Assembly: GCA_031388325.1 (NCBI GenBank)
Contig: JANNEE010000456.1
Coordinates: 1 to 26,082, forward strand
Direction of reading: 5' to 3'
Origin: Deinococcales bacterium
GTDB lineage: Bacteria > Deinococcota > Deinococci > Deinococcales > JAAFIG01
DNA: 26,082 bases
In this document: piece by piece, positions 6,626 to 23,724 of the stretch
Position numbering within the stretch: position 1 is the stretch's first letter
Layout of the letters: every line of letters starts with the position of its first letter
The notes under the pieces: generated by a model
Told to the model about the DNA's origin: nothing
Databases searched by the model: none
What the model saw: the letters and a program-made list of their open reading frames with translations, nothing else
Position numbers and translations under genes: made by a program

Positions 6626-6650
6626 ACCATAAAAAGTGTAGACTGCATCT

Positions 6651-6797
6651 GTTTGGTTCTCGAGGTGCGTAATCTCGAGATGAAAATGGGGAAGCTGGTG
6701 CAATTCCAGCGCTGTTCCGCAACGGTAATTGACTGAAGATAGTAATTGACTGGTCATAAGCCCGAATGCCTGCCAAGCTCTGAACCTACGGGGTTCA
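6651..6797 (+). ncRNA. Cobalamin (B12) riboswitch
   Basis: Conserved core GGGAAG-CTGGTG-CAATTCCAGC-GCTGTTCCGCAAC-GGTAA and B12-box AGCCCGAATGCCTGCC. Downstream hairpin TGAACC-TACGG-GGTTCA has a loop (CGG) complementary to the CCG loop of GTT-CCGC-AAC (kissing loop). It sits upstream of btuF/btuC-like genes. Confidence 0.92.
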
Positions 6798-6915
6798 CCT
6801 CTCGAGAGAAAGGGGGCGTTTTTTATGGTAATTGGGGTTTTATAGGTTTGGAATAGCGTTCTGGTGTTTCCAGTGCGTTTTTTATTGCTTTTCGCCTTCG
6901 CCGTCAGAGGTTTTT

Positions 6916-7788
6916 ATGTTGAAGAAATTAGTTGTTTTCCTTGTGGTTTGCTTGTTCTCGTCTGCTCTTGCCAGTTCCTACCCACTTAGCATCACCGATG
7001 ATTTGGGGCGCAGCATCACCTTAAAATCCGAACCAAAACGAATTATTGCGATGCTGCCCAGTCACACCGAAACGATATTTGCACTTGGGGCTGGGGCAAA
7101 ACTCGTAGGCATAGACGAGTACAGCAATTATCCAAAACTCGAGACCAGTAAAATCCAAAAAGTTGGCAATAGTTTTGTGCCGAATCTCGAGGCAATTGCG
7201 GCACTCAAACCCGATTTGGTCTTAGCCGACGAAAGCACCAGTTCTAAATTGGTCCAGAATCTCGAGAAGCTAGGGATTACGGTGTACGGGGCTTCGGCAC
7301 AAACCTACCTCGAGACCTTTGAGAAAATCGCGGTGCTTGGGCGTTTGATCAATCGTGAAGCCAATTCTTTGCGTCTAATTACGGGTATGCGAAGCGAAAT
7401 CAACAGCATTACCGCAAAAATAGCCGGTCGTCCAAGGGTCAGTGCGTACTTTGAAGTTGACCCAACCCCATACGCCGCAGGACCAAGCAGTTTTATTGGC
7501 GAGATGCTGTCTCGAGCCGGTGGGATTAACATTTTGCCAGCTACACTTGGGGCATTTCCAAAAATTAGTCCAGAATTGGTGGTCAGCAGCAACCCCAGTG
7601 TGATTATTGGCGCAAAGCTCGAGGATTTGCTGCTTCGTCCGGGTTGGGCAACTATCGCGGCGGTTAAAAATAACCGTGTTTACCGCGCAACCTCTGAGGA
7701 AAACGATGCGATTGTTCGCCCAGGTCCACGTTTACCTGTGGCGCTCAAAATCCTTGTGCGTTTTTTACATCCAGACATCAAGTTCTAA
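6916..7788 (+). CDS. btuF: Cobalamin ABC transporter substrate-binding protein (BtuF-like)
   Basis: Signal peptide, 'ITDDLGRSITLKSEPKRII', 'PNLEAIAALKPDLVL', 'RPGPRL'. GAGG RBS before ATG 6916; under the B12 riboswitch. Confidence 0.88.
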   Translation: MLKKLVVFLVVCLFSSALASSYPLSITDDLGRSITLKSEPKRIIAMLPSHTETIFALGAGAKLVGIDEYSNYPKLETSKIQKVGNSFVPNLEAIAALKPDLVLADESTSSKLVQNLEKLGITVYGASAQTYLETFEKIAVLGRLINREANSLRLITGMRSEINSITAKIAGRPRVSAYFEVDPTPYAAGPSSFIGEMLSRAGGINILPATLGAFPKISPELVVSSNPSVIIGAKLEDLLLRPGWATIAAVKNNRVYRATSEENDAIVRPGPRLPVALKILVRFLHPDIKF

Positions 7789-8823
7789 ATGAATCACCGC
7801 CCGAGCCTGATTTTTATGGCTGCTTTTGGCTTGCTGCTGCTGGCTGTCTTGTTGGCTGTTTCTAATGGCACACTCGAGATTACCCCAAGCCAGACATGGA
7901 ATGCCATTCAAAAAGGCTTAAGCGGACAGTCACTCGAGGGTTTAGAAGCCATCGTCTGGAATTTACGGCTGCCCCGAGTGGTTTTTGCAATTCTGGTCGG
8001 GGCAGCCCTCGCCGCCAGTGGGGTCGCCATGCAGGGCGTGTTTCAAAATCCATTAGCCGACCCATACCTTGTGGGTGTGGCAAGTGGTGCAGCTTTTGGA
8101 GCGACAGTCGCCATTTTTTTGACCTCGAGTGCTGCCCCCGCCTTTGCTCCTGCGCTTTTTTCGGCAAGGGCGGCGGGCAGTGGGCTAGTGCCAATCTTTG
8201 CTTTTTTTGGGGCAATGTTGGCTGTGACCTTAACCATTTTATTGTCTGGTACAGCCCGAGGTAGCCGTAATGCTTTAATTTTATCGGGCGTGGTGATTGG
8301 CAGCATGATTACTGCCATCACCACTTATATTCAACTTTTTGATGCCGATAGGTTACGCGCCGTGTTTTCTTGGACATTGGGCAATCTGGCATTGGCGGGT
8401 TGGTCTGAAGTGTTGGTGGTGTTGCCAATTGCCTTGTTGGGGCTAGGGCTGCTGCTGCTCTTGGCTAAGCCTTTAGATGCCCTGCAACTCGGTGATGACA
8501 CGGCGCAAACCCTTGGCATTCGGGTCTTGTGGCTTAAAATTGCAGTAATTATTGCGGCTAGTTTAATGACGGCAGCAGCCGTCAGTTTTGCTGGAATTAT
8601 TGGTTTTGTCGGTTTGGTCGCGCCGCACATTATGCGCCGTTTGTGTGGTGCAGCCCACCGCCCGTTAATTATTGCTTCGGCACTGGCTGGCTCGAGTTTA
8701 TTGTTGCTTTCGGATTTAGGGGCAAGAACCTTGATTCGTCCCCAAGAATTACCAGTAGGGATTGTCACAACCCTGCTAGGAGGACCTTTTTTCTTGTGGC
8801 TGATGCGAAAAGGAGGCTTATGA
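7789..8823 (+). CDS. btuC: Cobalamin ABC transporter permease (FecCD/BtuC family)
   Basis: 'NLRLPRVV', 'QGVFQNPLADPYLVGVASGA', 'LGDDTAQTLG', 'GIIGFVGLVAPH', 'ELPVGIVTTLLGGPFFLWL'. Confidence 0.92.
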   Translation: MNHRPSLIFMAAFGLLLLAVLLAVSNGTLEITPSQTWNAIQKGLSGQSLEGLEAIVWNLRLPRVVFAILVGAALAASGVAMQGVFQNPLADPYLVGVASGAAFGATVAIFLTSSAAPAFAPALFSARAAGSGLVPIFAFFGAMLAVTLTILLSGTARGSRNALILSGVVIGSMITAITTYIQLFDADRLRAVFSWTLGNLALAGWSEVLVVLPIALLGLGLLLLLAKPLDALQLGDDTAQTLGIRVLWLKIAVIIAASLMTAAAVSFAGIIGFVGLVAPHIMRRLCGAAHRPLIIASALAGSSLLLLSDLGARTLIRPQELPVGIVTTLLGGPFFLWLMRKGGL

Positions 8824-8865: not shown

Positions 8866-9857
8866 ATGGCTAAAATGCTGATGATTCAAGGTTGTACTTC
8901 CTCGGCGGGTAAATCGTATTTAACTGCCGCCATCTGCCGAATTCTGGCAAACCAAGGCGTGCGGGTTGCACCTTTCAAAGCCCAGAACATGAGCAACAAC
9001 GCAGGTGTCACCAAAGCTGGTCTCGAGATGGGCAGGGCGCAAATCGTTTTCGTGGCGATGCTAATCTCTTAGCCCCAGCCCCAGCTTGGCTCGAGCAACG
9101 CACGGGCGTACCAACACTTGGGGTTGTACCAATGCTAAACATTCCACTGCCCGAAGAAGACGGGATGGCATTTGAAACCTCACAAAGCTCGGGGACAGTG
9201 GCGGTGATTAGCTTGCCGCGTATTGCTAACCTTGATGAATTTGCGCCGCTTGGTGATGTACTTCGGATTGCTCGAGAACCCCACGACCTTGACCAGATTC
9301 GAGCAATTATCATTCCGGGTTCTAAAAGCACCCGAGCAGACCTTGAATGGTTACGAACCACTGGTTTAGCCGCCGCGATTACCCGTGCTGCCAAAGCGGG
9401 CGTGCCAATTCTCGGGATTTGTGGTGGGCTACAAATGCTTGGTCATACCGTCCACGACCCAGAACATATCGAAGGTGGAGGCACAAGCCAAGGACTGGGT
9501 TTACTTGACCTTGAGACCAGCTTTACAATACACAAAATCACTCGAGCCGCCGAATTTACCGATCTTGAATTAAAAACCAAATTACATGGCTATGAAATTC
9601 ATATCGGACGAACTTCCGGTACGGCAAGCATTAGTCTTCAACTGGGCGGCGAAGCCATCGGCTGGCGTAACGGCAATGTACGCGGTGTTTATGCCCACGG
9701 ATTACTCGAGAATCCTGCTTTTTTAGAAGCCTTCTTAAACAGTGCAGGATTAAACTCACCTAAACCACTCGAGGCACTGGATGCACGGCTTGACCGAATC
9801 GCAACTCAAGTCCAAGCCTCGCTTGATTGGACACGAATTGCAGGGTTGATACAATAG
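8866..9857 (+). pseudogene. cobQ: Cobyric acid synthase with an internal deletion and frameshift
   Basis: N-terminus '[12 protein letters not shown]...[10 protein letters not shown]...EMGRAQ' (8866-about 9041) is joined directly, in another frame, to 'NRFRGD...LEQRTGVPTLGVVP...EED...PGSKST...GICGGLQMLG...GYEIH...YAHG'. The intervening CobQ segment is absent. Confidence 0.88.
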
Positions 9858-9877: not shown

Positions 9878-10618
9878 TTATTCCCTGTTTGCCATCATCC
9901 AAGCTGACATGCTCATTCCAGCACACCACAAAAAATCATAGATTAACTCGCCGTAATACTGTCCACCAATCACAATTGTGGCGATTCTGGCTAAACTGAC
10001 CAATAAAAAAACAATCGAGAGTTGACGCAGGGTGTTGGCTAATCGCCCACGTCCTAAGACCACGGTTTGACTGCCAAAAAGTGCAGTCAGTAAATAGACC
10101 ACAAATTGGAAAATAATTTGACTGATTGCTGATTGTGCCATATTACCAATCGTGGCTTGGGTGATTAAGGTGACAATCACGGTTAGAAAAAGCGCAAAAA
10201 AAACGCTTCCAAGCACCAACCTTAAGGCTTGGGCGCGGGCATATAAACCTTGTCGCTGCATCGCAAACGGAAAAGCAATTGAAGAAATCACCACCACCAG
10301 AGAACCAGCATAATAAAGCGGGTCACGGATAAAACTCGAATCGGCTCGAGGGATTCCAGCAAATAACGAATAGGTCAAAATCGCGTCTCCAAGGGTAATA
10401 AATGCCAAGGCAACCCCCAAACCAAGCACACTTGGGCGCAAGGTTGCAGGCAGTTTGCTTGACAGCCGAATCAGGATAAAAGCGCCTAAAGTATCAAACA
10501 TCAACACCGCCAAGCTACGAAATGGTGTTTGGGTGATTGCCCCAAACACCCAAACCAGCCAGATAGCCCCTGCGAGCATCAGGTACGGCATTTTTTGATA
10601 TGAGAAAATCGTTTGCAT
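9878..10618 (-). CDS. Polytopic membrane protein (about 8 TM), function unknown
   Basis: About 8 hydrophobic segments; TACACT box 7 nt before the ATG. Confidence 0.75.
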   Translation of the reverse strand: MQTIFSYQKMPYLMLAGAIWLVWVFGAITQTPFRSLAVLMFDTLGAFILIRLSSKLPATLRPSVLGLGVALAFITLGDAILTYSLFAGIPRADSSFIRDPLYYAGSLVVVISSIAFPFAMQRQGLYARAQALRLVLGSVFFALFLTVIVTLITQATIGNMAQSAISQIIFQFVVYLLTALFGSQTVVLGRGRLANTLRQLSIVFLLVSLARIATIVIGGQYYGELIYDFLWCAGMSMSAWMMANRE

Positions 10619-10948: not shown

Positions 10949-11956
10949 TCAAAGAAATTCTCGTCCAATCAGGGCAAAGTCTTTTGCCATCTCGAGTTCT
11001 TGATGAGTGGCTGCCAGCCCTGATAAATTTAAGCCTCGTACCCCAGCTAAAGCAAGCATCGCCTGACCGTATTCGATGGCAAATTTAATCCCCTCGAGCC
11101 GAATGTTCTTGGCATTCTCGAGCCGAGTTGCTAAGCCAATTGGCAATTGCAGATTGTAAAAACCGACTGCCCCGTGCAGTGACTCGAGCGAAGTAATCAC
11201 GGGAATACCGACCACAAATGGCACGTCTGCGCCTGCTGATAAAGTTTGCGCTCTAAAGTCTGCCACCAGTTCGGTACTGTGTGGCATATTGACCATACAG
11301 ATATGCGCTCCAGCTTTGACTTTTTGGGCTAATCGTTCGGCACGAAGCTGGGTTGGAATGGCATTTGGCTTTTCGCCGACCGAAACCAGTAACCCTGCGG
11401 CTCGAGCCAAAGCAGCCAAGCGGGTGCTGTCTAAATCAAAAACCGCTTTGGCATCGGCGCGGTGTCCAGATAGGGTATGGTCGCCCGTCACGCAGTTTAC
11501 GCCAGCCACACCAAGATGCGCCAAGGCAACAGCTTCGGACTCGAGGGCAACGCGGTTACGGTCACGGCAATTAAAACCAACCCAAGACTCGAGACCCGCG
11601 TTTTTCATCAGCCAAGCGCGGTAAGCGGGTGGAAATTGAACCCGAGCGCCACCGTGGTCACCGATTAAATAGGCATCGGCACTACCACGAATCTGGTCGG
11701 CAATTTCAAGGATTTTGTCGGCATTTAAGGGAATGGTCGGGATGTCGGTAATAATAATTGGGCGGCAGGTCATGGTTTCAAGGATTGCCAAACCACCACT
11801 TGCCGTAACAGCTTGGCTTGGTACAGCCCCAGACCATTCGGGAACGGTTGCTCGAGCGATAAACGGACACGAAACCCCCGGAATCTCGCACTCGGTATTT
11901 GAGCGCATTCCAGCACACGGTCCGTAAAGCATGTCTTTGGGGCAAGCGTGGGTCAT
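10949..11956 (-). CDS. Methylenetetrahydrofolate reductase-like flavoprotein with an N-terminal MetV/MTHFR_C-type cysteine motif
   Basis: N-terminal 'CPKDMLYGPCAG...CE......CPF', then MetF-like 'NCRDRNRVALES', 'CVTGDH', 'QKVKAGA'. Confidence 0.8.
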   Translation of the reverse strand: MTHACPKDMLYGPCAGMRSNTECEIPGVSCPFIARATVPEWSGAVPSQAVTASGGLAILETMTCRPIIITDIPTIPLNADKILEIADQIRGSADAYLIGDHGGARVQFPPAYRAWLMKNAGLESWVGFNCRDRNRVALESEAVALAHLGVAGVNCVTGDHTLSGHRADAKAVFDLDSTRLAALARAAGLLVSVGEKPNAIPTQLRAERLAQKVKAGAHICMVNMPHSTELVADFRAQTLSAGADVPFVVGIPVITSLESLHGAVGFYNLQLPIGLATRLENAKNIRLEGIKFAIEYGQAMLALAGVRGLNLSGLAATHQELEMAKDFALIGREFL

Positions 11957-13350
11957 GATCTAAACCACGACCCAGCCGTCACGCCTTTTTCGCCAGTCTC
12001 GAGTTGTCTGATTTTACCAGGATTAAGCAACCACTTTGGGTTGAATTTCTTGACCCCTTCAAGCACCGCCTCGCCGCTCCAACGCGGGTCTTGGTCGAGG
12101 TAATAAACGTGCGGATTGGCAATTTGAATCCCGATTTCTTCGCAATAATCAATAATTTCGTAAAGCCGCTCTTTGCTCGAGTAGCGAATCAGTGGCAATG
12201 AAGCCGCCACCAACGTTCCACCAGAACTTAAGTTTTCATGGATAAACTCGAGGTGCATCAGGATTTCAGCTGGAAATTTGGCACTTAACAATTTGCATTG
12301 CTCGAGAACCCGATTCGCCATAAAACGCCCCTGCAAATAGGTGATACCTGGGTCGGCTTTCATAGCCCAAAGGGTGGTGTGATTCCAAGTAAAATCCGAA
12401 ATCGCAAACGAAGACTTATGGTACTTTTCGGGCGGATTATGCCAATCGAGTGTGCCATCAAACTTGGCTGCTAAATCAACTGCCGTTTTGAGAAAGGTGG
12501 CTTCGACTTCTAGCAACGCATTTGCCCGACCAATCTGCACCCCGCCATCGGCGACCAGTGGCGTAAAAAACTCTGGAATACCCGCTTGGTTAATCGCAAG
12601 TTCTCGCTTGGGAATACTGGTATCAAGCGCCAAAGCATGACCAAAGGAAATGGCTGCCTCAAGACTGGGGAAACTCAGCACTGCTTCAGTCCAATTCTGG
12701 GCTTTGGCAAGCGGAATACTCAGTTCAAGTATAATTGCGGTGGTGCCGTAGGCATGAATCACACTGGCGCAATCCCAGCCTTTTAACTCAAGGATTTCGG
12801 GTTCGTCGGTCAGGGTCAGGACTTCGGCTGCCAGCACATTGTTATCCCAGAGTGTGCCGTGGTTAATGCTGCCGACCCCGCCAAAGCCACCGCCGACAAA
12901 ACCACCAATGGTGCAAGTCGCCCAAGTGCTGGGATAAATTTTAAGTTCCCAACCCAATTCGCGCCCTTTGCGTTCCAGCGCCCCCCTTCGTACCCCCGCT
13001 TCGACTCGAGCCACACCAGTTTCTTGGTCTATGGTGATGATGTTGTTCAAGCGGTGCATATTCGCCACAATCCCACCCGAAAGCGGCACGCACTGCCCGT
13101 AATTGCCCGTACCCGCGCCGCGAATGGTCAGTGGGATGTTGTGTTTGACTGCCAAGCACACCACCTCAAGCAATTCGAGTTTGTTGGCTGGGGCAACCAC
13201 CACATCGGCTCGTTTACTGGCAAGCAACTCGAGCAACACAGGCGAATACCAATAATGGTCAAGGCTAAAAATCTCGAGCGACCGAGCATCAGTGAAGACT
13301 TGTTTTTCACCAGAAATGGTTTTTAAGGCAGAAATAATTTCGGGGTTCAT
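11953..13350 (-). CDS. FAD-binding oxidoreductase (FAD_binding_4/VAO-type, GlcD-like)
   Basis: 'RGAGTGNYGQCVPLSGG', 'PST...TIGGFVGGG.GG', 'HAYGT', C-terminal 'FNPKWLLNPGK'. Confidence 0.9.
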   Translation of the reverse strand: MNPEIISALKTISGEKQVFTDARSLEIFSLDHYWYSPVLLELLASKRADVVVAPANKLELLEVVCLAVKHNIPLTIRGAGTGNYGQCVPLSGGIVANMHRLNNIITIDQETGVARVEAGVRRGALERKGRELGWELKIYPSTWATCTIGGFVGGGFGGVGSINHGTLWDNNVLAAEVLTLTDEPEILELKGWDCASVIHAYGTTAIILELSIPLAKAQNWTEAVLSFPSLEAAISFGHALALDTSIPKRELAINQAGIPEFFTPLVADGGVQIGRANALLEVEATFLKTAVDLAAKFDGTLDWHNPPEKYHKSSFAISDFTWNHTTLWAMKADPGITYLQGRFMANRVLEQCKLLSAKFPAEILMHLEFIHENLSSGGTLVAASLPLIRYSSKERLYEIIDYCEEIGIQIANPHVYYLDQDPRWSGEAVLEGVKKFNPKWLLNPGKIRQLETGEKGVTAGSWFRS

Positions 13351-13374
13351 AGATTGACCTCAAAGGGACATTGG

Positions 13375-14610
13375 TTAGAAATGGGTGGTGATTTGACGTT
13401 CGGCTTGGCAGGCGATTTTACCATTCAAAATAACCCATTTCTTCTCGGATTGATTTTTGAGGGCTTCAAACCAGTTTGGGGCATCAAGGACAAGAATATT
13501 GGCTTTACAACCTACAGCTAAGCCGTACTTCTCGAGTCCAATGGCTTTGGCTGGGGTGGTCGTGACCATTTCAAGAACTTGATGGACTTCATCCCCCCAA
13601 GCCACTGGCGCGAGGTGTGCCATAAAATGCGCCACCTCGAGCAGGTCGTTGCGTCCAAAGGGATAGTACGGATTGTTGATGTCGTCTTGGGCGGTGGCAA
13701 CTGGCACACCAGCTTTTAATAACTCAAGAATTGGGGCGTGACCTCGAGCCGCGGGTTGGCAGCGCTGAGCGGTTGTGACCAAAGCAACATGGGCGTTGGA
13801 AAAAATCGTCACTCCCGCTTGTTTGAATAACCGAATCACCCTATCCGCATGGGCTGGGTCATAAAATGCTAAAGCATTACTTTGTGTGCCGCAAACTTGT
13901 CCTTGCATTCCAAGTTCAATCGTTTTGACAGCCACCATCTCGGCGGTGCGCGAAGTGGGGTCGTCGGTATCGTCCAGCACAAAATGGGCTGGAATTTTAT
14001 AGTGCTGGGCTAATCCAAGCACCAAATCAATATGCGCCATTTGCGAGGATTCTGTAGGCTCGAGCCACGGAATCCCACCAATCACATCCGCCCCCATCTC
14101 GAGGGCTTGGGTCAAAAGCTGGGTGGTGCTTTCCTTGGCACTAAAAACCCCATTTTGTGGAAAGGCTGCCACTTGAATCTCGAGCCAACTTGCATAGCGT
14201 TTTTTAAGCTCCAGCAGTGCCTCAAATGCCCGCAGCCCCGCATCGGCATCGACATCGGCAAATAAGCGCAATGCGCCCGTACCATGGCGAATGGCTAAAC
14301 GCACGGTGGCTTCGGCTCGAGCCAGAACTTCGGCTTTTGTGTACTTGCGTTTGACCTCGGCAATTGCCGCAAAGCGATTTTGCCTACTCGAGTAATCAAA
14401 AGTATCGGGCAGCAGCTTGCGCCAATCCGACTTACAGGCATGAAGATGACCATTGACAAAAGTTGGCATGGTTAGGCAATTGGCAACATCTAATTCGAGT
14501 CTTGCTGTCATATTTAGGTTTGGCTCGAGGTGCGCGATAACACCATCCTGAATGGCAATATCCAAAGTTTGACCACTCGAGAGACAGGCATTTTTGAGCA
14601 GGATGTCCAC
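13375..14610 (-). CDS. Cytosine-deaminase-family metal-dependent amidohydrolase with a non-canonical active site
   Basis: 'NGHLH', 'QVAAFPQNG', 'GADVIGGIPW', 'QDDINNPYYPFG', 'GLAVGCKANILVLD'; GTG start. Confidence 0.85.
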   Translation of the reverse strand: MDILLKNACLSSGQTLDIAIQDGVIAHLEPNLNMTARLELDVANCLTMPTFVNGHLHACKSDWRKLLPDTFDYSSRQNRFAAIAEVKRKYTKAEVLARAEATVRLAIRHGTGALRLFADVDADAGLRAFEALLELKKRYASWLEIQVAAFPQNGVFSAKESTTQLLTQALEMGADVIGGIPWLEPTESSQMAHIDLVLGLAQHYKIPAHFVLDDTDDPTSRTAEMVAVKTIELGMQGQVCGTQSNALAFYDPAHADRVIRLFKQAGVTIFSNAHVALVTTAQRCQPAARGHAPILELLKAGVPVATAQDDINNPYYPFGRNDLLEVAHFMAHLAPVAWGDEVHQVLEMVTTTPAKAIGLEKYGLAVGCKANILVLDAPNWFEALKNQSEKKWVILNGKIACQAERQITTHF

Positions 14611-14612
14611 CT

Positions 14613-15615
14613 TTACGCCCCCTCGAGAATTCGCCGTCTGGCAATCGAACGCAAGGCATCTGTGGTGCTTTCTGCCTCGAGTACGACGTTTTTTGTGCTT
14701 AATGGCTCGAGACCAAGGGCAGCTTCGGCGTTACTGGTAATCATCTTAAAAGCTGCCTCGAGACCAGCCTCATGGGTTAAGTGGGTAGCGGTTGCCCCCA
14801 AATGTGCAGCGTAGAGCAAATCATAGTTACACCGGATGAAACGGGTCTTGAACGTTGTCCGAAGCAAAACAAACATTCACGCCAGCTTCAAGTAGTTGCG
14901 CTACCCGTGTAATACCGCGTGGCATTGGGTGAATACCGCGTCCTTGCAAATTGAGGTTACAAGCAGGTAGCGACACAATACTGATTTTTGCAGTGGCTAC
15001 TTTTTCGATCACCCGTGCCGCGTCGGATTCGGGCAGAAAATCAAGGCTACAACAATGTCCAGCCACCACAGGCAGACTAAATCCTGTTTTGATTACCAAA
15101 TCGGCTAGTACCTCGAGAAAATTGCTGTTGTCATTTTCGTCGATGTGCAAATCCACGGGCTTATTAAATTCTGCCGCCAACTCAAGGGCATTTTTAACTT
15201 CAAGCGCACCATCAGGGCGAATCGCCGGGCAGCCACCCACCGCGTCCGCGCCCAATTGCATGGCTTGGCGCATCAGGTGCAGTTCTTGGGATGGATTTCC
15301 CAGTGCCACAATTTGAATCAGGATTTTATCTTTGTACTGCTGGCGTAACTCGAGCATCGCCTCTAAAGCCAGAAAGCCGCTTGCATCAACATCCACATGG
15401 GTTCTAAGGCGGGTCGTGCCAGCCGATAGTGCCATTTTGAGTGCAAGGCTGCCACGGTGCAAATAATCGGCTTTGGTGATGCTTGGTTTATACGCCACCC
15501 ACTTGTAAATGGCTTCCATCAGCGTACCAGACGGATTGCCCACAGCTTTGATACTCAGGGTTTTATCGAGGTGACAATGGCTTTCGGTGAACCCGCCAAA
15601 GATAATTTCATCCAT
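14613..15615 (-). pseudogene. Cytosine-deaminase-family amidohydrolase interrupted by a frameshift near 14830 (pseudogene or sequencing error)
   Basis: 'ESHCHLDK', 'RTHVD', 'DLHIDEND', 'AGHCCSL', 'ASDNVQDPFHP', then stop. The expected continuation 'NYDLLYAAHL...' is in the next frame (ORF 14613-14876). GGAG RBS before ATG 15615. Confidence 0.8.
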
Positions 15616-16381
15616 GTGGCACTCCAAATAGACTCATCTCGAGCAGAACCTTAGCAAGAGCAGTGGTGGCTGCCTCACACCGTACCGCGCCGCGTTCAGG
15701 AGTTGCCAAGGTTGGGTCGCCAAAAACACCACCAGCACTCCAATCGCGGGTTAGCCACGAAGCAGTTGCTGCACCACCTGTTAAACCAACTGAACCATCA
15801 GGAATATCAGGGTAGTGCTGTACGGCTTTGGTCATATCCACCAAATCTGGCTCGAGATACAGCAGCAAACTGGTTTCCCAGTCGTTGGCGTGAATCCCGT
15901 ATTTGGCTTCTATGGCTGGAATTTCTATCGGGTCGGGCGCACCTGCATTGGTGAAGGTATTAAACACCATCAGTCCTGTTGCCACACGGATTTCTCGCGC
16001 CATCATCGCTAAAAGCGCACTGTTGCCACCATGGGCATTAACAAAACACAAACGCTTAAACCCCGAAGCCGCCACGCTCGAGGCAATATCGTGCAGCACC
16101 ATCATCAGGGTTTCTGCCCGCAAAGAAATTGTTCCAGCAAAGCCCAGATGCTCGTTGGATTTGCCATAACTCTGCACGGGAAGCCGCCAAACTTTGGCTT
16201 CTAACGGTAATTTCCCCAGTGCCAGTATCGTCATACGTTCGGCAAGCAGCGCATCGGTCGCGGTTGCTAAGTGTGCGCCGTGCTGCTCGATAGCCCCAAT
16301 CGGTAGCACCACCACCCCTTCGGATTTATCCAAGTCACGAATGGTTGTCCAACTTAAATTGGGTAAGTACCTCGAGTCCAT
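15608..16381 (-). CDS. Creatininase-family amidohydrolase (creatinine amidohydrolase / formamide hydrolase-like)
   Basis: 'PIGAIEQHGAHL..ATD', 'SNEHLGFAGTISL', 'VNAHGGN', 'HANDWETS'. Confidence 0.92.
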   Translation of the reverse strand: MDSRYLPNLSWTTIRDLDKSEGVVVLPIGAIEQHGAHLATATDALLAERMTILALGKLPLEAKVWRLPVQSYGKSNEHLGFAGTISLRAETLMMVLHDIASSVAASGFKRLCFVNAHGGNSALLAMMAREIRVATGLMVFNTFTNAGAPDPIEIPAIEAKYGIHANDWETSLLLYLEPDLVDMTKAVQHYPDIPDGSVGLTGGAATASWLTRDWSAGGVFGDPTLATPERGAVRCEAATTALAKVLLEMSLFGVPHG

Positions 16382-16402
16382 TCAACATCCCCTTTTTTAA
16401 CC

Positions 16403-16430
16403 GTAGGGGCGAGGTATGCCTCGCCCTTAT
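16403..16430 (+). repeat. REP-like palindrome of the GTAG type
   Basis: GTAG followed by stem GGGCGAGG-TATG-CCTCGCCC; intergenic; single copy in the window. Confidence 0.6.
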
Positions 16431-16506
16431 ATGACGATATTTTTTGATTTCCCAATTACCTGTGCTATGGTTTTTGCAAAGCCAGCCGAATTTCACAATC
16501 TCGAGT

Positions 16507-16971
16507 TTACGTGTTTGGCAACAGATGAATCGCCATTAAACTAACCAAATTAGCGGTGAATAAACTGCGGTGCGTTTCCATGATGTTAAATCCGGGTATC
16601 AACCAAGCCAGAAAAAGCTCATCCATGACCATAAAAGCTGCCCAGAGCGCCAGATTGACCATAAATGCCAGATTGACCAGCCGCAAATTATTCGGGTCAA
16701 AGCTACTAAGTGCCGCCCAGAGCAAATAAACTGCCACGATTTCCCAGATAATCGCCGAGACATACATCATCCAAGTCAGCCAATTGGGGGTGTTAAAAAC
16801 CTTGGTTACAGCCTGCATAAACGGATAATTGCCACTGCTAAATTTCCATGTTTCAGGTAAGATTTTAAGATTCTTAGCCACATCTAAAAAGTTCAGCAAC
16901 AACACCAACGATAACCATGTCGCCCAAGATAAAATAATGCCCTGCTTTAAGGTGATTAAATTCAAATCCAT
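16507..16971 (-). CDS. Hypothetical membrane protein (3-4 TM)
   Basis: Hydrophobic segments; GAGG RBS upstream of the ATG; co-oriented within the cluster. Confidence 0.7.
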   Translation of the reverse strand: MDLNLITLKQGIILSWATWLSLVLLLNFLDVAKNLKILPETWKFSSGNYPFMQAVTKVFNTPNWLTWMMYVSAIIWEIVAVYLLWAALSSFDPNNLRLVNLAFMVNLALWAAFMVMDELFLAWLIPGFNIMETHRSLFTANLVSLMAIHLLPNT

Positions 16972-16994
16972 GTTGTGTCCTCGCTAGCTGATTT

Positions 16995-17035
16995 TAAGTA
17001 AAACAGGGACAAAACGGTTTTCGCCCCTGTTTTTT
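16995..17035 (-). terminator. Terminator or stabilising hairpin after the binding-protein gene
   Basis: Minus strand reads CAGGGGCGAAAA-CCG-TTTTGTCCCTG followed by TTTTACTT. Confidence 0.65.
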
Positions 17036-17050
17036 CGAGGTCAAGAGTTC

Positions 17051-18022
17051 TTATTTTGGCTTTTGAATAAACACGGTGCTGAAGGCTTTTTTAATATCTT
17101 GGTCTTTTTTCAGGATACCAACGGCTTTCAGGGCTTTGTAGACTTCAGTCCAACGGCTAAGCTGCATTGTACCAAAACCGAATTTCTTGACTTGTCCGTC
17201 TTTGCCTGTGGCAAATGGAATCACGGCTTTACCGCTCCACGCAAGGAAGGCTGGGTTTAAGTCGCGATTATCCGCCGTTAAAGCATCGCCGTATTTGGCG
17301 GGGTTGGCAATGTACCGATTCCAACCTTCTTGGCTGGCAGACACCACCGCTTCTACGACTTTGCGATTTTTTTGGATGTACTCTTCGGTTGTGCCTAAAA
17401 CCCCATATGGGCTAAATCCAGAATCAGAAACCAGTAAGTAATCAATATCACCACCAGCTTCTTTGATGGTGTACGGTTCGGCAACCGCGTACCCTTGGCT
17501 AACCAGTTTTTTATTATTCAAGAAAGTTGCCACTTGTCCAGTATAATTGACTTGCTGGACCTTGCCTTGCAATTTGTACTTAGCCACGATGTAATCCCAG
17601 TATGGCGCACCTGGGGTAACAGCAACTTGGCGACCAGCTAGGTCAGCAAAGCCCTTAATCGGATTTTCTTTGTGGTACATCAGCACTTGTGGCGAGAGTT
17701 GTAAATCGGCAAAGACACCAACCACTGGTAGCCCCTCTTCTCGAGACTGCAAAATACCGCCTGTGTCCATTTGGGCAAAAGCCGCTTTACCGGTTGCCAC
17801 CAACTGATAGCCAGCTACGTTAGGACCACCGGGAATCAGTTTGACTTTGACTCCTCGAGCCTCATACAAACCATCTTGGACGGCTGCATAGTACCCACCG
17901 TGTGGCGGTTCGGCAAACCAATTAAGAATGATGCTGACTTCTGGCATTTTTTGTGCCGAAACCAAAGAAGCCACACCAACCGTTAAACCAGCGCCAAGCA
18001 GAACCAAACCTAATTTCTTCAT
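17051..18022 (-). CDS. ABC transporter substrate-binding protein, NMT1/THI5-like
   Basis: Signal peptide; 'LNWFAEPPHGGYYAAVQDGLYEARGVKV...GGP', 'LMYHKENPIKGFADLAG', 'QGYAVAEP'. Confidence 0.88.
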   Translation of the reverse strand: MKKLGLVLLGAGLTVGVASLVSAQKMPEVSIILNWFAEPPHGGYYAAVQDGLYEARGVKVKLIPGGPNVAGYQLVATGKAAFAQMDTGGILQSREEGLPVVGVFADLQLSPQVLMYHKENPIKGFADLAGRQVAVTPGAPYWDYIVAKYKLQGKVQQVNYTGQVATFLNNKKLVSQGYAVAEPYTIKEAGGDIDYLLVSDSGFSPYGVLGTTEEYIQKNRKVVEAVVSASQEGWNRYIANPAKYGDALTADNRDLNPAFLAWSGKAVIPFATGKDGQVKKFGFGTMQLSRWTEVYKALKAVGILKKDQDIKKAFSTVFIQKPK

Positions 18023-18069
18023 TATTTCCTCCAGCCCAAGGGGGCAACGTGGTGAGTTTTTTCTCGAGA

Positions 18070-18906
18070 CTAATTCTCATGCTGCACTGCTGATTCGTGC
18101 CAGTTTTTAAGTAACAAATGCCCAAAGAAATTGACCATTAAAAAAAAAGCAATTCCAAGTAAGGCAGCACTCAATGCCGAGGCGAATAAGTAACCGGTTT
18201 GCAGTCGAGCGCTGGTTTCGGCAATGATAATCCCCAGCCCACCCATGCCGCCGCCGCCAGCCCCTGCCATGTACTCACCAACGATTGTGCCAATCACGAC
18301 TTGGGCTGCGGCGATTCGCCAACCTGTGACCATGTAGGGCAGCGCAAACGGCAGGCGCAATTTGAATAGCGTTTGTGGCTTAGAAGCGCCGTAGAGCTTA
18401 AAGAGATTCTGTAAATTGTTTTCGACACTGATTAAACCTTGGGTGGTGTTTGCCACCACTGCAAAAATAGCAATAATTACGCTAATGGTGACAATACTAG
18501 CAAAACCAATATCAAACCAAATAATAATGATTGGCGCAATCGCAATCACGGGGGTGCTTTGCAACATGACCGCATAAGGGTACAAAGCTTTTTCGATAAA
18601 TTTGCTGCTCGAGAGTAAAAACGATAAGGCAGTACCCAGTACCATGACCACCAGAAACGCCACAAACGAAGCCTGAAAAGTAAACCAAGCCGAAGTCACT
18701 AGGCTCTCGCGGTGTTCGATAAAAGCACCAACCACACGAAGTGGACTGGGCAGAATATAAGGCTTAAGGTTGGCAATCGTAATAATACTTTGCCAAATGG
18801 TAATAAAAATTACAAAAGTAACCATTGGCGGGAATATCCGCTCGAGCCAAACAGGGATTTGCGTTTTGTTTTTTTGAACTCGAGCAATCGGTTTGGCTTC
18901 GGTCAT
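18070..18906 (-). CDS. ABC transporter permease (SsuC/TauC-like)
   Basis: 'YILPSP', 'QSTPVIAIAPIIIIWF', EAA-like loop 'LFKLYGASKPQTLFKLRLPFALP', 'GEY...GGLG'; GAGGTG RBS before ATG 18906. Confidence 0.92.
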   Translation of the reverse strand: MTEAKPIARVQKNKTQIPVWLERIFPPMVTFVIFITIWQSIITIANLKPYILPSPLRVVGAFIEHRESLVTSAWFTFQASFVAFLVVMVLGTALSFLLSSSKFIEKALYPYAVMLQSTPVIAIAPIIIIWFDIGFASIVTISVIIAIFAVVANTTQGLISVENNLQNLFKLYGASKPQTLFKLRLPFALPYMVTGWRIAAAQVVIGTIVGEYMAGAGGGGMGGLGIIIAETSARLQTGYLFASALSAALLGIAFFLMVNFFGHLLLKNWHESAVQHEN

Positions 18907-18926
18907 AGGATTCACCTCAAGGGGAG

Positions 18927-19706
18927 TTAATGGGTGTGGGCTAAAAGTTTCATGACCGAGTTTACACCTTGGGCAAATTCTGCTGTACCACGATGCTCAG
19001 ACATTCTTGGGTAAGGCGTGTCGAGCTTAAATTCATCCAAAATTCTGCCCGGACGAACACTCATCACGACAATTCGGCTGGATAAGAAAACCGCTTCAAA
19101 AACATTATGGGTCACAAAAATAATCGTGGCTTTGGTCAATTCGCGGACCTTCATCAGGTCGTCGTTAAGTTTCTGGCGGGTGATTTCATCAAGCGCCCCA
19201 AAGGGTTCATCCATTAAGAGCAAACGCGGTTTAGTGACCAAAGCCCTGGCAATCGAAACCCGCATTTTCATGCCGCCACTCAGTTCCCTTGGGAAGGCAT
19301 TGATAAAACCGCTCAGACCCACCATCTCGAGCGTCTCAGAGACCACAGAATTCCAACTGGCTTTTGGCAGCCGCATCAATTCGAGCGGCAATTCAACATT
19401 CTGGCGTACTGTGCGCCACGGCAAAAGCGTGGCTTCTTGAAAGACAAAACTCGATTGCCCTCGAGCTTGTAAGTCGCCTGGTTGCCGCCCATCAACGCTG
19501 ACCTCGCCAGCCGTGGCATCGCCCAGCCCAGCAATAATTCGCAACAGTGTACTTTTGCCGCAGCCCGAAGGTCCAACCAAGGACACAAACTCGTTCTCTT
19601 TGACCTCGAGACTCACGCCTTCTATCGCAATTGTGCCGTTAGCATATTGTTTATCTACGCCATGCGCCCGCACCAGTATTTTTGTGGGATTGATAATCGC
19701 GGTCAT
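18927..19706 (-). CDS. ABC transporter ATP-binding protein (SsuB/TauB-like)
   Basis: Walker A 'GPSGCGKST', signature 'LSGGMKMR', Walker B 'LLMDEPFGALD', 'FVTH'; AAGGA RBS before ATG 19706. Confidence 0.95.
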   Translation of the reverse strand: MTAIINPTKILVRAHGVDKQYANGTIAIEGVSLEVKENEFVSLVGPSGCGKSTLLRIIAGLGDATAGEVSVDGRQPGDLQARGQSSFVFQEATLLPWRTVRQNVELPLELMRLPKASWNSVVSETLEMVGLSGFINAFPRELSGGMKMRVSIARALVTKPRLLLMDEPFGALDEITRQKLNDDLMKVRELTKATIIFVTHNVFEAVFLSSRIVVMSVRPGRILDEFKLDTPYPRMSEHRGTAEFAQGVNSVMKLLAHTH

Positions 19707-19744: not shown

Positions 19745-19774
19745 AATATAACGTTTTGATTTGCAAACTGTCAA
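19745..19774 (-). promoter_or_regulatory. Sigma70-type promoter for the transport/catabolic cluster
   Basis: Minus strand TTGACA (19774-19769), 18-nt spacer, TATATT (19750-19745), about 40 nt before the ATPase start. Confidence 0.65.
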
Positions 19775-19859: not shown

Positions 19860-19888
19860 ACATATGTCAAAAAAACTTTGACATATGT
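19860..19888. promoter_or_regulatory. Perfect 12-5-12 inverted repeat, candidate operator
   Basis: ACATATGTCAAA-AAAAC-TTTGACATATGT in the divergent intergenic region. Confidence 0.6.
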
Positions 19889-19935
19889 TACCTGAGTTAC
19901 TATTTCGCCTATATTGTGCATTGTACAATATAACT

Positions 19936-20220
19936 ATGGTTATCGAATTCTTACGTTTTGAGGTAAGCCTTGAAAAACGAGCCGCTTTTCTAAAAGCCGA
20001 TGCTGCCATCTGGACAGCCGCCCTGAGTACCTACCCCGGGTTTATCAGCAAAGAAGTTTGGATTGACCAAGAAACGGAGCATGTCGTCACCATGATTCGC
20101 TGGGAAAGCCTGGAGCATTGGAAATCTATTCCCCAAGCCGACCTCGAGGCGATAGATGCCAAAATGGGCGAAAATTGGATGCCGATTGTTGAAGCTCGAG
20201 CCTTATTGCCAATTGTTTAG
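19936..20220 (+). CDS. Small dimeric alpha/beta-barrel (ABM-like) protein, TIGR03792-like
   Basis: 'MVIEFLRFEV...FLKADAAIWTAALSTYPGFISKEVW...IRWESLEHWKSIP'; TACAAT 6 nt before ATG 19936. Confidence 0.75.
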   Translation: MVIEFLRFEVSLEKRAAFLKADAAIWTAALSTYPGFISKEVWIDQETEHVVTMIRWESLEHWKSIPQADLEAIDAKMGENWMPIVEARALLPIV

Positions 20221-20535: not shown

Positions 20536-22785
20536 CTATACGAGATGCAGATGGCGCTCTAAGACAAACCCAGATTTGGCAGGTAACTCGAGGCTTGCGG
20601 CGGTGATGTGTAGCAGAGTTAGGTCTGCACCGACTGCCAAGCGGATAATTGGCGCAGTCTTACTCGAGGGCAGTACAACCGTCTCGGGCGTATCAGAAAG
20701 ATTGACCAAGGTTATTATCTCGAGCGTGGCATGGCTGCGAATCATGCCAAAAACGTTTTCTGGAATTAATTCATCGGTCAGCCATTGAATGTTCATGCTT
20801 GCCCAGTCTCGAGTTGCGGCTTTTAGGGCATTAAAGTTTTGTAAAACCGTTTCGATACCTGTTTCACCACCAATAAACATCATGTATGGACCTGGCAAAG
20901 ACATAAAAATCAGGGTCAGTAATTGTGTGTGAGCCACGCTAAATTGTTCGCGTCGCCATTTTTGCCCCCAACTGGGCCACCAAAAGGTATCGTGTGAATC
21001 AATATGATGCGCCGTGATTGCGCCCTTTGGTAAAAACGCATCGCGGTCTTGAACCCAACGGGCTAAACCTCGAGCGCTCGAAACACTCCAAGGCTTGGTT
21101 TTAGATGGCTCAGAGATAGCCGTCACCAGCCACTGCTCGTCGTAATTATAATTTAAGTCCATTGAACGGCGCAGTAAAATTCCCGATGGCTCGGTGTACA
21201 TTAAAGCATCGGCTTTTACGGCTTTTAATTCGGGGCGTAAACGCTCAAACAACGGCACACACGCCAAACTCGATAAACTGGCGCGGTGGCGCGACCACTG
21301 CGCCCAGTTGGGAAAATCGTTATAGGTTGGTGCATCAAAACGAAAGCCATCTATCTGTAGTTCAGACAATAAAAACTTCATTGCAGCGATAAAATAATCT
21401 TGCCATTCGGGGTTTCGGGCATCAAAGGCTTTGGTGTAAATACCCGCAATCTTGCCGTTGGAATCCTTAAAAAACCAGTCTGGGTGCTGCTCGATTAAAG
21501 GCGAAATGGCTGGGCTACCGGTTTTCCAAAATGGTTCAAAGTCGATAATGTGCCGCGACCATGCCACCAAATAATCGCTCCACTCGCCAACATCGGCACT
21601 AAAACTGTCGGTGGTTTGGCTCGAGACGAGACCAGCATATGGTCCAGCCCGCACGCCGTCAGCCGCCGCCGCAATCGATTCTTGGTCAAGCACCCCGTGC
21701 AGCAGCACATCCAAAATAATTCGCAGCCCAAGCCGGTGGCACTCGAGAACCAGCGCTTTGATTTCTTGCAGGTTGCCAAACGAGGTCGTAATATCCCAAT
21801 AATCGTGGACGTTATAACTTGGGTAGGGCTGGCGTGGCATTAACTGAATAACGCTAAAACCAAGGGCAGCGATTCGCTCGAGGTCGGCGGTTAAATCGCT
21901 TACTTCTGGGTACGGGGCGTAACGATGATTGGGATAAAAAACCGAGAAACCAATCTGGGCTTCAAAAATACTGGCGCTGGCAATCCAAGTCGGCGGGTTA
22001 TCGGGTGTGCTATGACCGCCTAAGCGCAGCCAAGTCGCAAAGGTCTGGGGGAATGTTGCAAAATCTGGAACACGCCAATCAAAATCAAATAAGTCTATTT
22101 TGGCGTTTTGAACCAAACTTAAATCGGCAGCAAAATTGGTCGCAAGCTCGAGTGAAACTGTGTTTTTAAGGTCAGATTTAACGCGAATATCGGTGACCTC
22201 GAGTTCATGGCGCAACCACAACGCCGCCCTATAATGTCGTCCAGCCATGTGCAGCACTGCACTCGAGCCTCGCAAGCCACCAATTGCTGAGATTCCAGTC
22301 CAGGCGCTGACTGTACCAAAAGCCGTATCTCGAGCCATGCCATTTCCGGGCGCGTTCAGTCGCCAATCGTCGGGTTCAAAGATAAAATCGCCTGCTAGGC
22401 TGATGTTGCGAATCAATTGGGTTGAATTCGCATCGCCAACCACAACCAAGCGCATCGTCAGGGCTGGACCATGCCGCCGAAATAAGCACTCAAAATATGC
22501 AGCCGCCTCGCCAAGGCGAATTGGCACAGCACAAGCGTCTCCTTCAGCACTTGAAGACCAGACGGGCGCACCATTTGCCACCGTACCAGCCAGCGTGATT
22601 GCCGCTTGGTAATCTATCCCACCAGTCGCAGAACGAACTTCTGTGCCATCCAGCAACAAAGAAAGTTGTAGATTCTCGAGCCGTACTCGAGCCAACGGTT
22701 GTTGGCGCAAAAAAATTGCGCTTGGTAAACCCGTCTCTTGGTTCAACTCGAGGGCGTGTTGGTACTCCGGGTGTTGAATAATCAT
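20536..22785 (-). CDS. GH13 (alpha-amylase family) glycoside hydrolase with a long uncharacterised N-terminal region
   Basis: 'LGFSVIQLMP', 'YNVHDY', 'ILDVLLHG', 'DGFRFDAP' (nucleophile), 'YTEP' (acid/base), 'IDSHD'. ATG 22785 is coupled to the upstream stop (ATGA) and has a GAGG RBS. Confidence 0.85.
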   Translation of the reverse strand: MIIQHPEYQHALELNQETGLPSAIFLRQQPLARVRLENLQLSLLLDGTEVRSATGGIDYQAAITLAGTVANGAPVWSSSAEGDACAVPIRLGEAAAYFECLFRRHGPALTMRLVVVGDANSTQLIRNISLAGDFIFEPDDWRLNAPGNGMARDTAFGTVSAWTGISAIGGLRGSSAVLHMAGRHYRAALWLRHELEVTDIRVKSDLKNTVSLELATNFAADLSLVQNAKIDLFDFDWRVPDFATFPQTFATWLRLGGHSTPDNPPTWIASASIFEAQIGFSVFYPNHRYAPYPEVSDLTADLERIAALGFSVIQLMPRQPYPSYNVHDYWDITTSFGNLQEIKALVLECHRLGLRIILDVLLHGVLDQESIAAAADGVRAGPYAGLVSSQTTDSFSADVGEWSDYLVAWSRHIIDFEPFWKTGSPAISPLIEQHPDWFFKDSNGKIAGIYTKAFDARNPEWQDYFIAAMKFLLSELQIDGFRFDAPTYNDFPNWAQWSRHRASLSSLACVPLFERLRPELKAVKADALMYTEPSGILLRRSMDLNYNYDEQWLVTAISEPSKTKPWSVSSARGLARWVQDRDAFLPKGAITAHHIDSHDTFWWPSWGQKWRREQFSVAHTQLLTLIFMSLPGPYMMFIGGETGIETVLQNFNALKAATRDWASMNIQWLTDELIPENVFGMIRSHATLEIITLVNLSDTPETVVLPSSKTAPIIRLAVGADLTLLHITAASLELPAKSGFVLERHLHLV

Positions 22786-23702
22786 GCTGACCTCATAAGT
22801 AAGCGCCGTGCCAACAGACACGCGCCAAGGACGGGCGATAACTCTGGCTCGGTGATTTTGCAGTTTGGTAAGGCTTCTATAATCGCGCTTTGAATAAAAG
22901 GTTTTGCCCAACTGCTCGAGATTCCACCGACCAGCACAACTTCGGCTTGCTCGAGTTCGAGTTTTTTGGCAACCGCCACCACACATTCAGACAGTTGCTG
23001 CCAGCCACGATGTAGTAACTCGAGGGCGACCGTATCGCCTTGTCTGGCAAGCTCGAGGACAGGCGGAGCAAGCGCCGCGATTTCGGCTCGGGTCAAACCA
23101 GTCAGATACAAGCGGTGCAGCATTTGGTCTGGGTGCGTAATACCCAATAAGCCAAGCATCAGGTCGGTCAGCCCAGTTTTTGCCCCACGCCCATCAAAGG
23201 CACGCACTACTGCCATCAGGCTTTGCTTGCCAATGTCGTAGCCACTGCCTTCGTCGGAAATCAGCCACCCCCAGCCACCTGCCCGCCATGTTTGCCCAGC
23301 CGCATTGCGACCATAGCAACTCGAGCCAGTCCCAACAATCAAGACAATGCCTTCCCGCCCAGACAACCCGCCTGCCAAGGCAATGCGGCAATCGTGGTCA
23401 GCTTCGACAATTGGCGCTAAATCAAGGCGCTTGGCAATGCCATAAACCAACTCGCGGTCTTTGGGCGAAACAATACCAGCTAAGCCTAAAAAAGCCGATG
23501 CAAATGGTGCAAGCTCGAGTTGGGCGGCGGCTCGAGCCTCGGCAACAGCTTGGGCAATGTTTTGCCTGGCGGTCTCGATTCCTACGTCATCAATGTTAGA
23601 AGCCCCAGCTTGCCCAGAGCCAAGCACCAAGCCATCTGAATCGCAAATCGTGGCAAGGGTTTTTGTTCCGCCACCATCAATGCCAAGCACGAATTGCTTC
23701 AT
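22782..23702 (-). CDS. BadF/BadG/BcrA/BcrD-type sugar kinase (N-acetylglucosamine kinase-like)
   Basis: 'LGIDGGGTKT', 'FLGLAG', 'HDCRIALAG', 'IVGTGS', 'RAGGWGWLISDEGSGYDIG'. Confidence 0.9.
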   Translation of the reverse strand: MKQFVLGIDGGGTKTLATICDSDGLVLGSGQAGASNIDDVGIETARQNIAQAVAEARAAAQLELAPFASAFLGLAGIVSPKDRELVYGIAKRLDLAPIVEADHDCRIALAGGLSGREGIVLIVGTGSSCYGRNAAGQTWRAGGWGWLISDEGSGYDIGKQSLMAVVRAFDGRGAKTGLTDLMLGLLGITHPDQMLHRLYLTGLTRAEIAALAPPVLELARQGDTVALELLHRGWQQLSECVVAVAKKLELEQAEVVLVGGISSSWAKPFIQSAIIEALPNCKITEPELSPVLGACLLARRLLMRSA

Positions 23703-23724
23703 GCGCCCCCATGCAAGGTCTGGT

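Follow-up and report, generated by a model that had tools for sequence, protein, structure and literature searches.

A conserved nine-gene Deinococcales operon with a MetV-MetF fusion, a candidate pathway for uptake and breakdown of a pterin-type N-heterocycle

The stretch of DNA analysed here, hereafter the window, is a contig of 26,082 nucleotides (JANNEE010000456.1 of GenBank assembly GCA_031388325.1; C779 in our numbering) from a metagenome-assembled genome (MAG) of a Deinococcales bacterium, which has 797 contigs and is 85% complete. Nine co-directional genes on the minus strand occupy positions 10949-19706 of the window. They encode the three parts of an ABC importer, a small membrane protein, a creatininase-family hydrolase, two proteins related to the cytosine deaminase CodA, an FAD enzyme and a protein that resembles methylenetetrahydrofolate reductase (MTHFR). 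The operon very probably serves to take up and break down an N-heterocycle. A pterin-type substrate, with the MTHFR-like protein as a redox partner, is proposed here tentatively from the sequences, as a reading with a somewhat less than even chance of being correct.

Layout and conservation of the operon

Gene families were assigned by Pfam and NCBIfam scans of the listed open reading frames (ORFs). The ESM Atlas added nothing beyond generic family names. The genes, in the order of transcription, and two upstream sites are as follows.

18927-19706, minus strand: ABC ATPase (PF00005, E 1e-33), 259 aa from the ATG at 19706
18070-18915, minus strand: ABC permease of the BPD_transp_1 family (PF00528, E 2e-22)
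17051-18022, minus strand: secreted NMT1/THI5-type substrate-binding protein (PF09084, E 1.5e-32; signal peptide)
16507-16971, minus strand: small integral membrane protein, about four helices, with a sub-threshold match to DUF2165
15608-16381, minus strand: creatininase-family metal hydrolase (PF02633, E 7e-68)
14613-15615, minus strand: barrel-only CodA-like deaminase, broken in this assembly (frames 14827-15627 and 14613-14876)
13375-14610, minus strand: full-length CodA-like paralogue (H214V, E217D, H246Q)
11953-13350, minus strand: VAO/PCMH-fold FAD enzyme of the PDB 6V42 type (FAD_binding_4, PF01565, E 5e-28)
10949-11956, minus strand: fusion of a MetV motif and a MetF-like barrel (MTHFR-like; PF02219, E 1e-11), hereafter MetVF
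19745-19774, minus strand: promoter-like TTGACA-18 nt-TATATT, a consensus match only, at 11 of 12 positions
19860-19888, no strand: perfect palindrome, with ATATGTCAAA-N5-TTTGACATAT at 19862-19886, in the divergent intergenic region (0 expected by chance)

The junctions between the genes range from -8/-20 to 125 nt, and the stop codon of the FAD gene overlaps the start codon of the MTHFR-like gene by 4 nt, as ATGA. An earlier, first-pass annotation of this DNA had named nine minus-strand genes of these families, separated by short or overlapping junctions; all nine are present, and the spacing is as it had described. The start of the ATPase was placed at the ATG at 19706 because an AAAGGA ribosome-binding site precedes this codon and because the promoter-like site falls within the longer, TTG-started ATPase frame. 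Save for this single strong site, terminator and promoter scans of the operon gave background levels. In Rfam, no element or riboswitch was found ahead of the operon, the sole match in the window being a cobalamin riboswitch located elsewhere.

Conservation of the neighbours was assessed by tblastn with reference loci. Four Deinococcales loci, L003, L004, L031 and L032, have the same nine genes in an unchanged order, and between L003 and L004 all nine have a dN/dS of 0.04-0.11, which corresponds to purifying selection. Because of this common order and these ratios, the nine-gene operon is real and its arrangement is not a product of chance.

The core of the cluster, composed of the NMT1-type ABC importer, the CodA-like deaminase, the FAD enzyme and the creatininase-family hydrolase, extends across at least six phyla, which include Deinococcota, Chloroflexota, Bacillota, Actinomycetota (with core genes in about 50 loci) and Proteobacteria. 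Relatives of the FAD enzyme are encoded in at least 599 species-representative genomes. A search anchored on the MTHFR-like gene gave 55 loci whose two flanks each measure 8 kb or more, in which neighbours were counted within 10 kb: the FAD enzyme and the ABC ATPase are each present in 40 of the 55, and the creatininase-family and CodA-like genes each in 38. Most of these loci belong to Actinomycetota (Microbacteriaceae, Pseudonocardia, Klenkia, Nocardioides and Nakamurella). Altogether, MetVF occurs together with the cluster in about 40 genomes of Actinomycetota and in four of Deinococcales. A second set, anchored on the FAD enzyme, comprised its 80 best loci and two alphaproteobacterial plasmid loci. 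Of these 82 loci, 44 have a creatininase-family gene, 39 an ABC ATPase and 24 a CodA-like gene. None of the 82 has the MTHFR-like gene, and this includes the Deinococcota loci L115, L116 and L118, which have the membrane protein and both CodA paralogues. The core is present across lineages and the MTHFR-like gene only in some of them; by this distribution, the core is a widespread module and the MTHFR-like gene a lineage-specific accessory.

In one of the Actinomycetota, Agreia pratensis (L053; 3397-9820 and 19366-20412), the cluster is flanked by genes for a MobA-like protein, 5-hydroxyisourate (HIU) hydrolase, guanine deaminase and allantoinase. Near the Agreia cluster there is also a gene of the ferredoxin-reductase type (FNR and 2Fe-2S), which is conserved in 34 loci.

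Proteins of the operon

The FAD enzyme scores 98 bits with PF01565 and gives a full-length match to PDB 6V42 (E 2.2e-77, residues 25-449). Its predicted model has a predicted local distance difference test (pLDDT) value of 91. The top fold match of this model is again 6V42, with a template modelling (TM) score of 0.89 and 33% identity, and the next-best matches are D-lactate dehydrogenases with a TM score of 0.73. The title of the 6V42 entry reads [quoted passage not shown]. A literature search brought up no paper that deals with 6V42 or with folate catabolism by flavin-dependent enzymes. Some relatives of the enzyme are found in other company. In L132, L138, L146 and other loci of Acidobacteria and Verrucomicrobia, the FAD gene occurs with a creatininase-family gene and a Peptidase_S15 (CocE/NonD-type) hydrolase gene, and there is no CodA-like gene. 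L131 and L124 have an isochorismatase-family hydrolase instead.

MetVF can be described as composed of a short cysteine-rich N-terminus and a barrel. The N-terminus has the motif C-x8-C-x8-C-x6-C (C5, C14, C23 and C30) with YGPCxG, which is invariant in 17 relatives. It scores 20.3 bits with PF12225 (MetV/MTHFR_C), against a cut-off of 23; many relatives carry PF12225, and there is no second cysteine cluster. The barrel scores 44.8 bits with PF02219 (cut-off 24) and its top Foldseek matches are all MTHFR, with target-normalised TM scores of 0.69-0.74, which assigns it to the MTHFR barrel fold. With the MetF equivalog TIGR00676, however, it scores 33 against a cut-off of 294. When compared with E. 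coli MetF, residues Gly119-Asp120, Lys172 and Ala175-Ala177 are kept, Glu28 is replaced by Asp and Gln183 by Asn, and Phe223 has no counterpart. A second MTHFR-like gene of the same genome is located on contig C320.

Between Deinococcales and Actinomycetota, and within the same loci, MetVF is 45-49% identical, the FAD enzyme about 30% and the other enzymes 35-41%. As its identity lies above that of the FAD enzyme and of the other enzymes, MetVF belongs to two versions of the cluster that have diverged deeply from each other. In L109 and L110, a gene for an NAD(P)H-dependent oxidoreductase directly follows the FAD gene with a 4-nt overlap; in the window, MetVF holds that position, with the same overlap. 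Because of this position and of its family, MetVF is read here as a putative lineage-specific redox component. Its most likely role would be to pass electrons to the flavin oxygenase, with reduction of a pteridine ring as the alternative. Outside the cluster, MetVF is found in the Meiothermus-like loci L033-L035. In the two of these that were examined, L033 (9170-11877) and L034 (3191-6196), it adjoins a 550-aa flavoprotein of the amine-oxidase/phytoene-desaturase type, a second recurring partner, and the neighbourhood has none of the remaining cluster genes.

The creatininase-family hydrolase scores 229 bits with PF02633. With TIGR04448, the creatininase equivalog, the score is 95.4 bits, against a cut-off of 235. 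In an alignment with creatininase of the 1J2T type, residues E34, H36, D45, H120, H178 and E183 are kept, and the metal ligand E122 is replaced by Gly. Judged by these features, the protein is a member of the wider creatininase family and not a creatininase proper. This family includes formamide hydrolases.

The shorter of the two CodA-like genes falls into two frames, as 2 bp are deleted between 14831 and 14830 in comparison with L003. At this Deinococcales MAG locus, which is 98% identical, the gene is an intact frame of 339 aa. In the window, L003 and L004, the short deaminase begins only about 14 residues before the HxH motif. The N-terminal beta-sandwich segment is missing in these three loci only, and is kept in the orthologues of other Deinococcota, Chloroflexota and Proteobacteria. 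The intact L003 orthologue keeps the HxH pair, H214, E217, H246 and D313 (E. coli CodA numbering, as in what follows). In the clade formed by the catalytic deaminases of the cluster, all metal and acid-base residues of CodA are kept, but not Gln156, which we take to be the cytosine contact of CodA. In the long paralogue, His214 is replaced by Val, Glu217 by Asp and His246 by Gln, and the same three substitutions are found in every long copy examined from Deinococcota and Caldilineales, over 46-83% identity and two phyla.

Neither paralogue has the six catalytic residues together with Gln156, and all NCBIfam models of CodA or cytosine deaminase remain below their cut-offs. The model PRK07583 for CDA-like (cytosine-deaminase-like) deaminases has a cut-off of 403 bits, which is passed by the Rhizobium (692) and Paroceanicella (607) deaminases and not by the intact L003 short orthologue (197) or the Agreia orthologue (172); the cluster deaminases of Comamonadaceae, Deinococcales and Actinomycetota do not pass it. 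A GHCCS / SDN-x-x-DPF signature is common to the cluster deaminase clade and to the proteobacterial cluster deaminases. AtzC is a close structural relative.

Between L003 and L004, the dN/dS is 0.077 for the truncated short deaminase and 0.113 for the degenerate long paralogue, so both genes are maintained in the lineage, and the break in the window is either of recent origin or an assembly error. Complex prediction with the short and long paralogues of L003 gave a score of 0.90, compared with 0.00 for the best control. The alignments had eight rows each, the runs agreed in at least 95% of the contacts and the partner had a pLDDT of at least 92. A score of that height is reached by 58 of 80 solved complexes and by 2 of 110 mismatched pairs. 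According to this prediction, the short deaminase probably pairs with the adjacent degenerate full-length paralogue, a candidate non-catalytic partner. CodA forms homo-oligomers, and the score may reflect likeness to the solved homomeric CodA interface instead of a specific heterodimer.

Two statements of the first-pass annotation can be set against these results. It had listed two cytosine-deaminase-family enzymes; the family is right, but the statement is not supported in that form, as one gene is broken here and the other protein is without the residues for deaminase chemistry. It had also singled out the MTHFR-like gene as the unusual component, and this view is upheld: the gene is translationally coupled through the ATGA overlap, it stays with the cluster in Actinomycetota and a single subclade of Deinococcales, and it is absent from 80 other FAD-anchored loci.

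For the ATPase of the importer, the nearest NCBIfam models are those of SaoA and of nitrate and taurine ATPases, every one under its cut-off. The binding protein belongs to the NMT1/THI5 family, with 113.7 bits for PF09084 (cut-off 20.5), a signal peptide, and adjoining permease and ATPase genes. Among solved structures it comes closest to ThiY (3IX1, E 4e-12), which binds formylaminopyrimidine. The membrane protein scores 20.8 bits with PF09933 (DUF2165), against a cut-off of 24.9, and is found at the same place in the Deinococcota loci L003, L004, L031, L032, L115, L116 and L118.

Substrate, alternative readings and surroundings

The substrate of the operon would be an amino-substituted N-heterocycle, most likely of the pterin or lumazine type, such as a folate breakdown product. 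The NMT1-type binding protein, together with the permease and the ATPase, would import the compound. A canonical CodA-like metal deaminase would then remove the exocyclic amino group and convert a pterin-type into a lumazine-type compound; in this MAG, the gene has the 2-bp deletion described above, and this step would therefore be lost, or the assembly is in error. The 6V42-type FAD enzyme would oxidise or oxygenate the ring, and the creatininase-family hydrolase, following the chemistry of its family, could open a cyclic amide or remove a formamide from the product. The MetV-MetF fusion would act as electron donor for the FAD enzyme, or as reductase of the pteridine ring.

The first-pass annotation had proposed the uptake and catabolism of pterins, folate fragments or other N-heterocycles. 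Its more general part, a cluster for uptake and catabolism of an amino-N-heterocycle, is borne out by the core, which travels together in at least six phyla. Its more specific part, the pterin or folate fragment, receives indirect support from the title of 6V42, from what has been published on CDA-like pterin deaminases, from the ThiY-like binding protein and from the purine-type gene neighbours in Actinomycetota. The neighbours in Agreia fit a product that enters purine-type catabolism, as lumazine does in Cupriavidus. A still more specific version, in which MetVF is a new flavoprotein outside one-carbon metabolism, dedicated to electron supply for the VAO-fold oxygenase or to reduction of a pteridine ring, and the two deaminase paralogues form an obligate heterodimer, both of them parts of an aerobic, non-molybdenum pterin/lumazine route, is speculative and we regard it as doubtful.

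Several points weigh against a pterin substrate and the redox role of MetVF. The link to pterins consists of an unpublished PDB title at 33% identity and of the pterin deaminase Arad_3529, compared by its published description, and the cluster is known here from sequences and predicted models. The short deaminase falls below the PRK07583 cut-off, its gene is broken in the window, and many of the FAD-anchored loci have no deaminase, so that deamination is not universal. The cluster also does not contain the enzymes of the published lumazine route, that is, the molybdenum dehydrogenase, the Amidohydro_2 isomerase and the UbiD decarboxylase. Furthermore, MetVF keeps only some of the flavin and folate residues of MetF, and it is also found outside the cluster, adjoining the amine-oxidase-type flavoprotein.

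The same operon logic could apply to another amino-N-heterocycle, either a purine derivative (guanine-like, oxidised or methylated) or a pyrimidine derivative. We consider this the strongest alternative, although on the whole somewhat unlikely. The actinomycetotal clusters sit among guanine deaminase, allantoinase, HIU hydrolase and MobA genes, and the genome from which the window comes has, elsewhere, an HIU hydrolase and five matches to molybdenum hydroxylases; purine neighbours would, however, be no less expected around a pathway that turns a pteridine into xanthine, as happens in Cupriavidus, and there are no purine genes near the operon in the window. The CodA family is annotated as deaminating cytosine and isoguanine, AtzC is structurally close, and none of the families of the cluster is specific for pteridines. 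Against this, folate catabolism is the sole functional label on a close relative of any core enzyme.

It is improbable that the MTHFR-like gene encodes an ordinary one-carbon enzyme at the end of an operon that is decaying in this organism. The Pfam MTHFR match, the frameshift of the deaminase in the window and the presence of MetVF without the cluster in L033-L035 would agree with it. However, the genome has the other MTHFR-like gene on contig C320, the score with TIGR00676 is far below the cut-off, and the gene overlaps the FAD gene by 4 nt. MetVF also occurs with two deeply diverged versions of the cluster, whose FAD enzymes are about 30% identical, and with the FAD enzyme in 40 of the 55 loci with full flanks, and the low dN/dS between relatives extends to all the genes.

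Utilisation of creatinine, cytosine or both, as the family names would have it when read literally, is highly unlikely. The matches to the Pfam creatininase family and to CodA-like NCBIfam models are countered by the low score with the creatininase equivalog and the loss of the metal ligand E122, by cytosine deaminase models that all stay under their cut-offs, and by the absence of Gln156 from the catalytic paralogue. We know of no role for an FAD oxygenase or an MTHFR-like protein in creatinine or cytosine pathways. Equally remote is the salvage of a thiamine pyrimidine (hydroxymethylpyrimidine or formylaminopyrimidine) through uptake of the ThiY type, removal of the formyl group by the creatininase-family enzyme and subsequent trimming, for which ThiY as the closest solved relative of the binding protein and the formamide hydrolases of the creatininase family would speak, but the similarity to ThiY is weak, TenA, ThiD and ThiE genes are absent, Rfam gives no thiamine pyrophosphate riboswitch in the window, and the FAD enzyme, the deaminase pair and MetVF would be left unexplained.

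The palindrome at 19860-19888 lies between the operon and a divergent gene, is otherwise found only in L003 and, judged by its sequence and place, may be an operator; no regulator gene was identified near it. The product of the divergent gene (19885-20220, plus strand) is a small protein with an ABM fold, which belongs to the uncharacterised family TIGR03792 with 92 bits, above the cut-off, and a 39% relative of this protein is encoded near the FAD gene in the cyanobacterial locus L131. Beyond it, positions 20536-25886 (minus strand) hold a sugar operon with a GH13 alpha-amylase-family gene, an ATPase or kinase of the BadF/BadG type and further sugar-related ORFs. On the other side, 330 nt downstream of the operon, an ORF of 246 aa (9878-10618, minus strand) has no Pfam or NCBIfam match; it is 100% identical in L003 and absent from that place in L004. 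A gene for a CobB/CobQ-type amidotransferase is located at 9132-9857. The cobalamin riboswitch (6637-6791, plus strand, 56.8 bits) lies directly upstream of genes for a Peripla_BP_2 binding protein and a FecCD permease (6832-8823), which are probably a B12 uptake system.

Comparison with known systems

Dying cells everywhere release pterins and folate fragments, yet only one bacterial route for their degradation is known to have been worked out, the molybdenum-dependent route of Cupriavidus. The cluster described here is far more widespread than that route, as seen from its FAD enzyme, and what ties it to a function is a PDB title and a single paper on a deaminase. We found no paper in which the proposed pathway is described. 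If the substrate is confirmed, the cluster would represent a complete, oxygen-dependent pathway for the recycling of vitamin B9 and pterins, and a new function for the MetF fold.

In the lumazine/pterin cluster I of Cupriavidus sp. LA-1, a pterin deaminase acts first and purine-type catabolism comes last; in between, lumazine is converted to xanthine with a molybdenum lumazine dehydrogenase, an Amidohydro_2 isomerase and a UbiD-type decarboxylase (PMC12391406). None of these three families was found by Pfam and NCBIfam among the nine genes of the operon. In their stead, the operon encodes an FAD enzyme of the VAO fold and a hydrolase of the creatininase family, and so it would follow a different route. 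The 6,7-dihydroxylumazine isomerase (DHLI) of Cupriavidus is made of a catalytic beta and a degenerate alpha paralogue (PMC12391406), a precedent for the deaminase pair proposed here.

A functional comparison for the deaminase of the cluster is Arad_3529 from Agrobacterium radiobacter K84. Its characterisation as a pterin deaminase is reportedly the work of Fan et al. 2013. The passages on this enzyme in PMC12391406 and PMC9513972 describe it as a cytosine-deaminase-like pterin deaminase that acts on folate and pterins, and according to the literature on these deaminases, CDA-like genes stand in for the classical pterin deaminase where a lumazine cluster is found in Rhizobiales and Actinomycetota. 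Arad_3529 and the cluster deaminase are both CDA-like, as compared by description only, and the clade of the latter keeps all catalytic residues. The copy in the window is barrel-only and broken.

The known systems nearest to the whole cluster are the proteobacterial modules around PDB 6V42/6V43, found in Rhizobium sp. CCGE532 (pRCCGE532c), Paroceanicella profunda (pD4M1A) and on a Comamonadaceae plasmid. These modules share with the window the NMT1-type binding protein, the ABC ATPase, the permease, the CDA-like deaminase, the 6V42-type FAD enzyme and the creatininase-family hydrolase, and their FAD enzymes are 37-39% identical to that of the window. Their deaminase genes are annotated as 'cytosine deaminase'. 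They also have a PRK09739-like NAD(P)H-dependent oxidoreductase, whose gene comes directly after the FAD gene at both alphaproteobacterial loci and at another place in the Comamonadaceae cluster, and some of them add a 2-oxoglutarate oxygenase or RidA. However, they are without the MetV-MetF fusion, the second, degenerate CodA paralogue and the DUF2165-like membrane protein, and their deaminase is full length, whereas that of the window is barrel-only.

For the fusion itself, the comparison is with the MetV and MetF proteins of acetogens, in which MetV has the MTHFR_C signature NGPCGG and the gene metV is found upstream of metF (PMC8515935, PMC8760232). The fusion shares with these the MetF-like barrel, a putative cysteine motif of the MTHFR_C type (GPCxG) and the order metV-then-metF. 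Unlike acetogen MetVF, it retains only about 32 residues of MetV and is without the two ferredoxin-type [4Fe-4S] motifs, and its context would be aerobic catabolism instead of the Wood-Ljungdahl pathway. What sets the locus apart is the MetV-MetF fusion, the pair of a barrel-only and a degenerate deaminase, and the small membrane protein. Compared with the widespread core, the version of Deinococcales and Actinomycetota would add an MTHFR-fold protein recruited to catabolism and a pairing of catalytic and degenerate deaminases.

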